Positions 48,247 through 56,766 of a stretch of 64,000 nucleotides of DNA are shown piece by piece. Below the pieces are notes generated by a model. It had not been told where the DNA came from, made no database searches, and saw only the letters and a program-made list of their open reading frames with translations. The stretch lies in NCBI RefSeq assembly GCF_055900595.2, contig NZ_CM148325.1. One strand, given 5' to 3'. The position numbers and the translations under genes are program-made. Numbering within the stretch: position 1 is the stretch's first letter; each line of letters starts with the position of its first letter.

Positions 48247-50904
48247 GTGACTTTCTTTGATTTCTGGGGAAAAACCCGACGTGGCGAGAAAGAGGGTGGC
48301 GACGATTATCACCTTCTTTGCTGGCATTCGCTGGATGTAGCCGCGATAGGCTATTTAATGGTCAAAAACAACTGTTTCGGGCTGGCTGACTATTTTCGTC
48401 AATTAGGTTTCGCTGACACGGATCAGGCAGCACAATTTTTCGCCTGGTTGTTGTGCTGGCACGATACTGGAAAATTTGCCCGCTCATTTCAGCAACTTTA
48501 CCTGCACCCACAACTCAAGGTTCCGGAAGGCGCAAGAAAGAATTACGAAAAGATCTCTCATTCAACGCTGGGTTACTGGTTGTGGCATCATTATTTAATT
48601 GAATGTGAAGAGTTGCTTCCTTCATCTTCACTCTCTTTGCGCAAACTTAAACGGGTAATAGATATGTGGATGCCCGTGACGACCGGGCATCATGGTCGGC
48701 CTCCTGACCGTATCGATGAACTGGACAACTTTCTGCCTGAAGACAAAGCTGCCGCACGAGATTTTCTCCTTGCAATCAAGTCACTGTTTCCGCTCATAGA
48801 GATCCCCACATTCTGGGATGATGACGAGGGCGTTGAACTTATAAAACATCTTTCCTGGTATATATCTGCAACCGTCGTACTCGCAGACTGGACGGGATCG
48901 TCAACGCGGTTTTTTCCACGCGTCGCACATGTAATGGATATTAAAGATTACTGGCAGAATGCTTTAGCTCAGGCTCAAAACGCATTAACCGTCTTTCCTC
49001 CAAAAGCAGAAACCGCACCTTTCACTGGAATTAACACGCTGTTTCCTTTTATTGAGAACCCAACACCGTTACAGCAAAAGGTGCTGGATCTGGATATCAG
49101 CCAGCCAGAACCGCAGTTGTTTATTCTGGAAGATGTGACTGGCGCAGGTAAAACAGAAGCGGCGCTTATCCTGGCGCACAGGTTGATGTCTGCGGGTAAC
49201 GCTCAGGGGCTGTTTTTTGGTTTGCCGACAATGGCAACGGCCAATGCCATGTACGATAGGCTGGTCAAAACCTGGCTTGCTTTCTATTCGCCGGAATCCC
49301 GCCCCAGCCTGGTGCTGGCACACAGCGCTCGTTCGCTAATGGATCGCTTTAACGCATCGCTGTGGTCTGGTGATTTTGTGGGGTCAGAAGAACCGGATGA
49401 ACAAGCGTTCAGTCAGGGATGTGCGGCCTGGTTTGCTGGCAGTAACAAGAAGGCGTTGCTGGCTGAAATTGGCGTCGGCACGCTGGATCAGGCGATGATG
49501 GCGGTGATGCCGTTCAAACATAATAATCTGCGGCTTCTGGGGCTGAGTAACAAAATCCTGCTAGCCGATGAGATCCACGCCTGTGACGCTTATATGTCGT
49601 GCATTCTTGAAGGGCTGATCGAGCGGCAGGCGCGTGGCGGAAACAGCGTTATTTTGCTTTCTGCTACGTTGTCTCAACAGCAGCGTGACAAACTCGTCGC
49701 CGCCTTTGCGCGTGGTGCAGAGGGCCAGCAAGAAGCTCCGTTGCTGGAAAAAGATGATTATCCCTGGCTGACGCATGTCACGAAATCCGATGTGCATTCG
49801 CACCGGGTAGCGACGCGCAAAGACGTTGAGCGCAGCGTGAGTGTGGGTTGGCTTCATAGCGAACAAGAGTGTATTGCGCGTATCGAATCGGCGGTAAGTC
49901 AGGGGAAATGCATCGCCTGGATTCGGAATTCTGTCGATGACGCCATCCAGGTTCATCGTCAGCTGCTTGCCCGCGGCGTCATTCCTGCTTCCAGCCTTTC
50001 ACTTTTTCATAGCCGCTTTGCTTTTAGCGATCGCCAGCGAATTGAAACGGAGACGCTGGCACGCTTTGGTAAAGAAGACTGTTCACAGCGTGCCGGAAAA
50101 GTCCTCATTTGTACTCAGGTCCTGGAGCAGAGCGTCGACTGCGACCTGGACGAAATGATTTCCGACCTTGCCCCTGTTGATTTACTGATCCAGCGAGCAG
50201 GGCGATTACAGCGACATATCCGCGATATTAATGGTCAGTTAAAGCGTGACGGTAAAGACGAGCGTCACCCTCCTGTATTGCTGATTCTGGCCCCCGTCTG
50301 GGACGACTCTCCGGGTGAAGAATGGTTTGCCAGTGCCATGCGTAACAGTGCATTTGTCTATCCCGATCATGGGCGAATCTGGTTGACGCAGCGTGTGCTG
50401 CGTGAACAAGGCGCGATTCAGATGCCACACTCAGCCCGGCTTCTGATTGAATCAGTCTACGGTGAGGACGTGGTAATGCCGGAAGGGTTTGCCCGCAGCG
50501 AGCAGGAGCAAGTGGGCAAATACTACTGCGATCGTTCAATGGCTAATAAGTTTGTGCTGAACTTCAGGCCCGGCTATGCCGCCAATATCAACGATTACCT
50601 TCCGGAAAAACTGTCGACACGTCTGGCTGAGGAGTCTGTTTCCTTGTGGTTGGCTACCTGTATTGACGGTGTGGTGAAGCCTTATGCCACTGGCGCTCAC
50701 GCATGGGAAATGAGCGTTGTCAGAGCGCGCCAAAGCTGGTGGAAAAAACATCGGGATGAGTTTTCTTTACTGGAAGGGGATGCGTTCAGGCAGTGGTGCG
50801 TTGAACAGCGGCAAGATCCGGAGATGGTAAATGTGATTTTAGTTACCGATGACGAAAGTTGCGGGTATTCGGCTACGGAGGGATTGATTGGCAAGGTTGG
50901 TTGA
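48247..50904 (+). CDS. cas3: Cas3 HD-nuclease/helicase (type I-E)
   Basis: 885-aa ORF (GTG start) with HD motifs, Walker A TGAGKTEAAL and DEIH box. Confidence 0.9.
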   Translation: MTFFDFWGKTRRGEKEGGDDYHLLCWHSLDVAAIGYLMVKNNCFGLADYFRQLGFADTDQAAQFFAWLLCWHDTGKFARSFQQLYLHPQLKVPEGARKNYEKISHSTLGYWLWHHYLIECEELLPSSSLSLRKLKRVIDMWMPVTTGHHGRPPDRIDELDNFLPEDKAAARDFLLAIKSLFPLIEIPTFWDDDEGVELIKHLSWYISATVVLADWTGSSTRFFPRVAHVMDIKDYWQNALAQAQNALTVFPPKAETAPFTGINTLFPFIENPTPLQQKVLDLDISQPEPQLFILEDVTGAGKTEAALILAHRLMSAGNAQGLFFGLPTMATANAMYDRLVKTWLAFYSPESRPSLVLAHSARSLMDRFNASLWSGDFVGSEEPDEQAFSQGCAAWFAGSNKKALLAEIGVGTLDQAMMAVMPFKHNNLRLLGLSNKILLADEIHACDAYMSCILEGLIERQARGGNSVILLSATLSQQQRDKLVAAFARGAEGQQEAPLLEKDDYPWLTHVTKSDVHSHRVATRKDVERSVSVGWLHSEQECIARIESAVSQGKCIAWIRNSVDDAIQVHRQLLARGVIPASSLSLFHSRFAFSDRQRIETETLARFGKEDCSQRAGKVLICTQVLEQSVDCDLDEMISDLAPVDLLIQRAGRLQRHIRDINGQLKRDGKDERHPPVLLILAPVWDDSPGEEWFASAMRNSAFVYPDHGRIWLTQRVLREQGAIQMPHSARLLIESVYGEDVVMPEGFARSEQEQVGKYYCDRSMANKFVLNFRPGYAANINDYLPEKLSTRLAEESVSLWLATCIDGVVKPYATGAHAWEMSVVRARQSWWKKHRDEFSLLEGDAFRQWCVEQRQDPEMVNVILVTDDESCGYSATEGLIGKVG

Positions 50905-50995
50905 GATGCCTGCGACAGGATTCTCTGAATAGTTGATACACAAAAAAGGATGGAAGGATGGATAACCGACCTGGGATGGTCTTTTTTACGAGAGG

Positions 50996-55556: not shown

Positions 55557-56476
55557 CGTTTGTACCACTGAGTCCGATCCCGTTAAAAGATCGCACCTCC
55601 ATGATCTTCCTCCAGTACGGTCAGATCGACGTACTGGACGGCGCTTTCGTGCTGATCGACAAAACAGGGATCCGCACGCATATTCCGGTGGGATCGGTCG
55701 CTTGCATAATGCTCGAACCAGGAACGAGAGTTTCCCACGCGGCGGTGCATCTGGCCGCCACGGTGGGGACACTGCTGGTCTGGGTTGGTGAAGCGGGCGT
55801 TCGCGTTTACTCCTCCGGACAACCCGGAGGGGCGCGGGCAGATAAATTACTCTACCAGGCAAAGCTGGCTTTAACGGAAGATCTACGGTTGAAGGTGGTG
55901 CGCAAAATGTATGAATTACGTTTTCGTGAACCACCGCCAGCTCGCCGTTCAGTGGAGCAGCTACGGGGAATTGAGGGAGCCCGAGTACGCCAGACCTATG
56001 CATTACTGGCGAAGCAATATGGTGTGAAATGGAATGGTCGCAAATACGATCCTAAAGACTGGGAAAAAGGCGATGTTGTGAATCGCTGCATCAGTGCTGC
56101 CACATCATGTCTGTACGGTATTTCTGAAGCGGCAGTATTAGCCGCGGGATATGCGCCCGCTATTGGATTTATCCATAGTGGCAAACCGCTTTCATTTGTT
56201 TATGACATAGCCGATATCATTAAATTTGATTTGGTTGTGCCAAAGGCATTTGAAATAGCGGCGAGGCAACCCGCAGAACCAGATAAAGAAGTCAGGTTGG
56301 CCTGTCGCGATATTTTCCGTAGCACTAAGTTAACGGGCAAATTAATCCCGTTAATTGAGGAAGTCCTTGCCGCCGGTGAAATTGAACCACCACAACCCGC
56401 GCCGGATATGTTACCGCCAGCTATCCCGGAACCTGAAACGCTGGGTGATAGTGGTCACCGGGGGCGCAGCGGATGA
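55553..56476 (+). CDS. cas1: Cas1 integrase (type I-E)
   Basis: 307-aa ORF (GTG start) [33 protein letters not shown]... Confidence 0.92.
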
Positions 56477-56766
56477 GCATGGTCGTGGTTGTTACAGAAA
56501 ATGTCCCGCCGCGCTTACGTGGACGGCTCGCGATCTGGCTACTGGAAGTGCGTGCTGGTGTTTATGTTGGTGATACATCCAAACGTATTCGGGAGATGAT
56601 CTGGCAGCAAATCTCCCAACTGGCAGGTTGCGGAAATGTGGTCATGGCCTGGGCGACCAATACCGAGTCGGGTTTTGAATTTCAGACCTGGGGTGAAAAC
56701 AGACGTATTCCGGTGGATTTGGATGGGTTACGGTTGGTTTCGTTTCTTCCTGTTGAGAATCAATAA
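56473..56766 (+). CDS. cas2: Cas2
   Basis: 97-aa [32 protein letters not shown]... Confidence 0.92.

Follow-up and report, generated by a model that had tools for sequence, protein, structure and literature searches.

The DNA analyzed here is a stretch of 64,000 nucleotides (nt) from contig NZ_CM148325.1 of RefSeq assembly GCF_055900595.2, hereafter called the window, and it carries at positions 48247 to 56766 a type I-E operon of CRISPR-associated genes, the cas genes. The question that this locus raises is why an operon sitting in an Escherichia coli chromosome should look so unlike the one known from E. coli K-12. A first-pass annotation, made from the sequence, had proposed that the interference module is diverged from the K-12 reference and that it belongs to one of two divergent variants circulating in E. 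coli. We conclude with high confidence that this is a complete and apparently functional type I-E locus of the cas-E1 variant (O157:H7-like, also named cas-EO), located at the ancestral cysH-iap position of the E. coli chromosome. The operon looks foreign beside K-12 because it is K-12 that has the rarer, replacement variant.

Variant identity of the operon

Two E. coli clusters, cas-E1 and cas-E2, were defined by Almendros et al. 2014 (PMC3903273). The majority cluster, cas-E1 or cas-EO, contains O157:H7, with Salmonella and E. albertii placed beside it, and cas-E2 or cas-EK contains K-12, most phylogroup A carriers, S. dysenteriae Sd197, and E. fergusonii (PMC3903273, PMC3737337). E1 is said there to have been "altogether replaced" by E2 in a minority of strains, and the published mean guanine-plus-cytosine (GC) contents are 53.5% for E1 and 45.6% for E2 (PMC3903273). 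Díez-Villaseñor et al. 2013 (PMC3737337) tied the O157 variant to "leader-A", "type A" repeats, and a CWT acquisition motif, and the K-12 variant to leader-T, type-T repeats, and CTT only; in the published assays, the CAT motif was used by cas-EO and not by the K-12 Cas1-Cas2 (PMC3737337).

The eight window proteins were aligned with those of K-12 MG1655 (NC_000913.3) and of one O157:H7 genome, as listed in Table 1. All of them are 83-98% identical in amino acids to O157:H7, and the two operons have in common the cysH-iap locus, the gene order and overlaps, the type A leader and repeats, and the lengths of all eight proteins (885/520/178/351/248/216/307/97 amino acids, aa). Against K-12, Cas3 and the Cascade subunits stand at 21-30%, and for CasB a BLASTP comparison of the window and K-12 proteins finds no significant match. 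The supposition that one of two divergent variants is present is therefore borne out, and the mismatch to K-12 that had been suspected at the N-termini of Cas3, Cse1, and Cas6e runs through the entire proteins (29.5%, 21%, and 26%). The alignments are clearly far from an identity above 95% to K-12 for all Cas proteins, which the first-pass annotation had named as the outcome that would speak against divergence.

The subtype is given by the curated NCBIfam models, for which all eight products exceed the type I-E cut-offs. The signature genes cse1 (casA) and cse2 (casB) are both present, scoring 602 bits to TIGR02547 (cut-off 70) and 102 bits to TIGR02548 (cut-off 28.5), and the subtype-specific models for Cas7e, Cas5e, Cas6e, Cas1e, and Cas2e are all five above cut-off (TIGR01869 with 443 bits, TIGR01868, TIGR01907 with 276 bits, TIGR03638 with 382 bits, and TIGR01873, respectively). 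Cas3 passes the cas3_core and cas3_HD cut-offs and is a single polypeptide in which an N-terminal HD nuclease is joined to an SF2 helicase, with the catalytic motifs intact. Models specific for K-12 fail on the same proteins: Cas3 scores well under what the K-12-type equivalog PRK09694 requires, and CasA is well below the PRK09693 cut-off and scores only 101 to NF007247 (cut-off 576). Likewise, window CasA and Cas7 find the K-12 Cascade structures with E-values of only 1e-15 to 1e-27. Cas7 does match PDB 9uer chain E (Cse4/Cas7, 351 aa) with an E-value of 1e-187, about five sixths of the positions being identical by eye, so structural data exist for an E1-clade Cascade subunit.

How common each variant is was asked of 5426 RefSeq complete E. 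coli genomes. Window-type cas DNA is found in 2792 of them and K-12-type interference DNA in 1187; hence the variant in the window is the common one, and K-12 is the exception. The feature is thus an already known, ordinary cas-E1 variant, whose difference from K-12 was described in 2013-2014, and since that difference has been recognized (PMC3903273, PMC3737337) the finding is a further example of a known variant and not a discovery.

Within E1, the window allele has 6-7% DNA divergence (93-94% identity) from most E. coli E1 operons. Among the 2792 genomes with window-type cas DNA, 2739 are at 90-95% identity and only 10 are at 99% or above, and no complete genome in the RefSeq collection combines a whole operon above 99.0% identity with an intact cas3. 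The most variable E1 gene is casB, which is dimorphic in E. coli, with 1191 genomes at 90-95% and 1243 genomes at 80-90% nucleotide identity to the window; the window CasB falls in the allele group of E. albertii (96%) and not in that of O157 (82.6% of amino acids).

The operon has its eight open reading frames (ORFs) in the canonical type I-E order, cas3-cse1-cse2-cas7-cas5-cas6e-cas1-cas2, each with one terminal stop only. The genes had been annotated as all present, intact, and tightly packed, and so they are. The overlaps at casA/casB, casD/casE, and cas1/cas2 had been listed correctly and measure 4, 19, and 4 nt, respectively, and one of 4 nt at casE/cas1 had been overlooked; the remaining intergenic gaps are 10-14 nt, except for 91-97 nt between cas3 and casA. 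To the left of the operon lie cysJ-cysI-cysH-hok/sok and to the right iap-cysD-cysN-cysC, which is the standard E. coli CRISPR2.1 locus. An Rfam search returned sok and RNA-OUT only, with no match within the cas operon. The 262-aa casE ORF that opens at 54768 was rejected as over-extended, since only from its residue 47 onward is it homologous to K-12 CasE, and the RefSeq relatives have 216 aa.

Table 1. Features of the cas region and the CRISPR arrays. Positions are those of the window; amino acid identities to K-12 are global.
Feature	Position	Strand	Size	Remarks	Identity to K-12	Identity to O157:H7
sok	47715-47871			Rfam match
Hok ORF	47856-48008		50 aa
Candidate sigma-70 promoter	48089..48116	+		TTGTGA-16-TATTAT upstream of cas3; candidate from consensus scan
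cas3	48247..50904	+	885 aa	GTG start after GAAGGA; HD nuclease and SF2 helicase, fused	29.5%	92.9%
casA/cse1	51002..52564	+	520 aa	522 aa if started at the alternative ATG at 50996; large Cascade subunit	21%	95.0%
casB/cse2	52561..53097	+	178 aa	small Cascade subunit	~7%	82.6%
cas7e/casC	53112..54167	+	351 aa	Cascade backbone	29%	98.3%
cas5e/casD	54178..54924	+	248 aa		29%	96.0%
cas6e/casE	54906..55556	+	216 aa	pre-crRNA endoribonuclease; start per RefSeq annotation of relatives	26%	95.4%
cas1e	55553..56476	+	307 aa	GTG start; integrase	84%	98.4%
cas2e	56473..56766	+	97 aa		84-86%	97.9%
CRISPR leader	56767..56862	+	96 nt	leader-A type, assignment after PMC3737337
CRISPR2.1 array	56863..57502	+		11 repeats (29 nt) with 10 spacers, of which nine have 32 nt and one has 33 nt
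Distal CRISPR array	30577..31154	+		10 GAG-type repeats, 9 spacers; RefSeq CRISPR annotation in relative Z0117EC0005

The start of cas3 deserves a comment. The upstream ATG that is taken as the cas3 start in O157 by the Prokaryotic Genome Annotation Pipeline (PGAP) is one base out of frame in the window allele (48204-48247), and hence the start is the GTG at 48247. In the 99%-identical strain 2013C-4282, PGAP labels cas3 as "frameshifted" (locus L004, 2958-5658), but the 885-aa GTG ORF is intact there, so we reject a frameshift and read the label as an annotation artifact that arises because the O157-type upstream ATG is out of frame.

Origin of the difference from K-12

DNA homology with K-12 ends at 47858 and restarts, at about 70-73%, at 55565, which is 12 bases into cas1; in between, similarity is undetectable across 7.7 kb. 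The left break falls inside hok/sok between cysH and cas3. Past the right-hand break, cas1, cas2, and the leader have 73-74% nucleotide identity to K-12, and the flanking genes cysH, iap, and cysD have 93-96.5%. The cas genes have a GC content of 51.9% in the window, as is typical of E1, and 44.8% in K-12.

One account of this pattern would call for no replacement at all. The interference genes of the two variants would be orthologs driven apart at their present site by strong diversifying selection, for instance in an arms race with anti-CRISPR proteins. In keeping with it, no other part of the operon evolves as fast as the Cascade and cas3 genes, within E1 too, where casB is dimorphic, and Cas1 and Cas2 have remained similar. 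This last similarity, however, exists because Cas1e and Cas2e evolve slowly. Of at least 202 type I-E loci, the 80 most similar in Cas1, all gammaproteobacterial, were sampled with a Cas1 profile (L005-L084); Cas1e and Cas2e are 75-99% conserved over all 80, and window Cas1 has 75-99% identity to the Cas1 of these loci regardless of the type of their interference proteins. In-place divergence also does not account for a loss of detectable DNA similarity over 7.7 kb between flanks that are 94-96% identical, for a GC difference of 7-8 points, or for cas1-cas2 and the leader being far more diverged than the flanks, and the published analysis concludes replacement (PMC3903273).

What decides the matter is that each variant has homologs in other genera that are much closer to it than the other E. 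coli variant is. On the window side, E. albertii and Escherichia sp. MOD1-EC7003 have Cas proteins with 92-97% identity, and the S. enterica type I-E system belongs to the same E1 clade at the same cys-linked locus. The alignment to Salmonella that had been suggested in the first pass gives, for S. enterica subsp. diarizonae, 69% for Cas3, 74-75% for CasA, 83% for CasB, 84% for Cas7, 80% for Cas5, 76% for Cas6e, and 95% for both Cas1 and Cas2, and the Salmonella cas DNA is 68-81% identical to the window, a divergence at the level of the genus. On the K-12 side, the nearest sampled kin of the interference proteins is in Citrobacter amalonaticus (51-74%), followed by Erwinia endophytica, Pantoea sp. 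GD03673, and Marinomonas rhodophyticola (48-68%). Divergence in situ is thereby effectively refuted, and we regard it as very improbable.

A different account concerns the right-hand junction. Measured against K-12, amino acid identity steps sharply at the casE/cas1 boundary from 26% to 84%, and DNA similarity restarts at 55565, as might be seen in a chimera of a non-K-12 interference cassette with a K-12-type adaptation module of cas1-cas2, leader, and repeats. But the step disappears when the comparison is made to O157:H7, to which window Cas1 and Cas2 are 98% identical against 84% to K-12, and the cas1 DNA 96.5% against 73%. The leader and repeats are of the A type and not the T type of K-12, and a Cas1 tree groups the window with E1 loci of Escherichia and Salmonella, at a long distance from K-12. 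The protein and DNA identities refute a chimera, and the probability that we would leave for it is close to nil, lower still than that for divergence in place. Judged from these comparisons, cas1-cas2 and the leader are also of a non-K-12 lineage, and it is the whole operon that is of a different lineage. To that extent the first-pass view needs amending: nearly all of the protein divergence does lie in the interference module, as it had said, but cas1, cas2, and the leader are not orthologous to those of K-12 either, as their DNA identity of 73-74% indicates.

The reading that we adopt is that the window and K-12 operons are xenologs: K-12 belongs to a minority of strains in which cas-E2, brought in by horizontal transfer, has taken the place of E1. 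Cas1, Cas2, the leader, and the repeats evolve slowly and are still recognizably alike in the two operons.

The K-12 system, from which Cascade structures 4QYZ, 4TVX, and 5H9F derive, has the same subtype, gene order, and chromosomal position as the window, and the two share their catalytic residues and a near-identical repeat, with no difference in the 5' handle ATAAACCG or the hairpin stem. A difference with possible consequences is the cas3-casA spacer, 414 nt in K-12 and 91-97 nt in the window. The K-12 spacer carries the Pcas promoter, and with so short a spacer the regulation of the window operon would be expected to differ. Mechanistic knowledge of E. coli CRISPR-Cas comes nearly all from K-12, and most E. 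coli carry a system that is 21-30% identical to it in Cas3 and Cascade; at that distance, the preference for a protospacer adjacent motif (PAM), the regulation, and the sensitivity to anti-CRISPR proteins are not transferable by assumption.

Leader, arrays, and prospects of function

The leader adjoins cas2 and is 100% identical to those of strain 2013C-4282 and of Pseudocitrobacter, 97.8% identical to that of O157, and about 74% identical to that of K-12. The CRISPR2.1 array that follows has the repeat GTGTTCCCCGCGC[T/C]AGCGGGGATAAACCG with a spacing of 61 nt, and its repeats start with GTG (ending in CAC on the other strand, "type A"), whereas K-12 repeats start with GAG. Tandem Repeats Finder missed the array because the spacers differ, and a direct-repeat search recovered it. 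The eight leader-proximal repeats have T in the hairpin loop (repeat position 14), and the three distal ones have the usual C there; such a split would fit a first repeat that mutated and was then copied at every later acquisition. The distal array, which would be used by the same Cas proteins, differs in its spacers from that of Z0117EC0005 by internal gains or losses only, and a two-repeat CRISPR remnant is found at 31658-31747, near queE/ygcE.

Going by what is established for the family, the array transcript would be cleaved by Cas6e at the conserved repeat hairpin, and the resulting CRISPR RNA (crRNA) would be assembled with Cse1, two copies of Cse2, six copies of Cas7, Cas5, and Cas6e into Cascade. 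Cascade would then locate protospacers with an AWG (CWT) PAM and recruit the HD-helicase Cas3 for target degradation, and Cas1-Cas2 would put new 32-nt spacers in at the leader end of the array. The residues expected for these activities are conserved. In Cas3 they are H72, D73, and K76 of the HD domain, Walker A K302, DEIH at 441-444, and S472 and T474 of motif III; in Cas6e, His30 aligns with the K-12 catalytic His20; and in Cas1, they are E141, H208, D218, and D221. The K-12 residue numbers used in this check are those that we take to be given by Westra 2012, Brouns 2008, and Babu 2011.

The newest, leader-proximal spacer (56892-56923) matches, at 32 of 32 positions, a DUF4942/DNA-methylase gene carried by SSU5-like phage-plasmids. 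Its targets include phages Cyrano, CMS-2020a, and PhiR41_1, pLF82, and the O104:H4 plasmid, with 138 plasmid records at 99% identity or above, and the protospacer is preceded by an ATG PAM (CAT on the opposite strand). This speaks for adaptation not too long ago.

Against an active system stand several observations, which suit the rival account that the locus is intact in sequence yet a silent or decaying relic conferring no immunity in nature, an account that is compatible with E1 identity. The closest relatives, Z0117EC0005 and E600003, with 100% flank identity, have IS421 in cas3 and have lost its 5' part, and other carriers of an identical Cas7 have a split cas3, cas6e, or cas5; these losses suggest weak selection for keeping the system. 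The array differs from that of Z0117EC0005 by internal deletions, with no new spacers at the leader end. The K-12 system is silenced by H-NS (PMC3903273), and in the window the region upstream of cas3 is AT-rich, with a GC content of 42-43%. A consensus scan for promoters and terminators gave sites that are not above shuffled expectation and of which none stands out. Support for the PAM comes from a single exact protospacer; the only other spacer with a match, to a lambdoid rha gene, aligns at 29/32 with AGG upstream, a motif would take more than two protospacers to define, and the search against phages and plasmids gave no convincing match for the other 18 spacers. Opposing the relic account are the intactness of all eight genes with their catalytic residues, and the perfect match, with the expected PAM, of the newest spacer to a widespread family of E. 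coli phage-plasmids. We consider a relic a serious contender, somewhat short of an even chance, and continue to describe the locus as apparently functional. The IS421 site in Z0117EC0005 (L002, 21202-23790) corresponds to about 48050-49650 of the window, which retains the intact ancestral cas3.

Interference cassettes in other genera and the host chromosome

The relation of the window to K-12 has parallels among the 80 loci sampled. In the Cas1 tree, which was built by neighbor joining without bootstrap, loci group by host genus or family, with the window-like and K-12-like classes of interference genes scattered among one another. Between loci, Cas7 is at 40% identity and below or at 50% and above, a bimodal distribution. 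Fifteen locus pairs combine a Cas1 identity of at least 90% with a Cas7 identity below 45%, and they fall in at least 6 clades, namely Citrobacter (for example L033/L022), Marinomonas (L040/L041), Oceanospirillum (L036/L030), Alteromonadaceae (L066/L067, with Cas1 at 99-100%), Halopseudomonas (L070/L068), and K-12 versus other Enterobacteriaceae, where K-12 pairs in this way with at least 5 loci. In pairs from several genera, Cas1 is at 92-100% and Cas2 at 84-95% (four pairs tabulated), and Cas3 and Cascade are at only 26-47%. When five pairs were compared by blastn, the interference genes had no DNA similarity, which restarted at the start of cas1 or up to about 0.9 kb upstream of it, and for the Citrobacter and Oceanospirillum pairs it also ended near the start of cas3. 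These junctions are the same as those between the window and K-12.

It may therefore be a general rule of gammaproteobacterial type I-E systems that at least two ancient, mutually unrecognizable cas3-to-cas6e cassettes have been swapped repeatedly, with E1 and E2 of E. coli as the local case; we would give this generalization an even chance of being right. The swap sites appear to lie upstream of cas3 and at the cas6e/cas1 boundary, with the cas1-cas2-leader-repeat module conserved and tracking host taxonomy. Modular exchange of CRISPR-Cas parts is a generally known phenomenon, and the pattern fits it. When the literature was searched for a cross-genus swap of type I-E cassettes, nothing specific was found, though the pattern may still be published, and cross-genus exchange could merit a dedicated phylogenetic study.

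The K-12 operon (L001, 10570-19220) has an internal step in GC content, from 44.0% in cas3-casE to 50.1% in cas1-cas2, and its Cas1 is 92-95% identical to that of UBA5654, Raoultella terrigena, C. portucalensis, and Pluralibacter loci that have the other interference class. By reason of both the step and this kinship, the E2 operon itself looks composite.

Another side observation concerns Pseudocitrobacter vendiensis CPO20170097T (NZ_CALSBS010000035.1; L008, 1-4371). Its locus as compared begins inside casA, and from casB to cas2 and through the leader it is 96.5-100% identical in nucleotides to window 52396-56862, with a CasB that is 99% identical. The flanks on the same contig are far less similar to the window, iap at 73%, cysD at 87%, and cysN at 80%, and none of its 28 spacers is in common with the window. 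This suggests a recent transfer of an E. coli-type cas-E1 cassette into the syntenic locus of P. vendiensis, and with it that transfer between genera may still be going on. An assembly mis-join across CRISPR repeats is possible as the source of the same picture.

As to the host, a non-coli Escherichia was considered and rejected: eight RefSeq E. coli genomes match the window over its first 25 kb with 100% identity, the other listed E. coli do so with about 97.5%, and the cys-cas neighborhood has 95-96% identity to most E. coli. An IS10 copy is located at 28151-29466, between a lemA-like gene and queE, and it is missing from the otherwise identical Z0117EC0005; it is recognized by a 402-aa transposase ORF on the - strand, an Rfam match to RNA-OUT at 29352-29421, and the IS10 terminal sequence.

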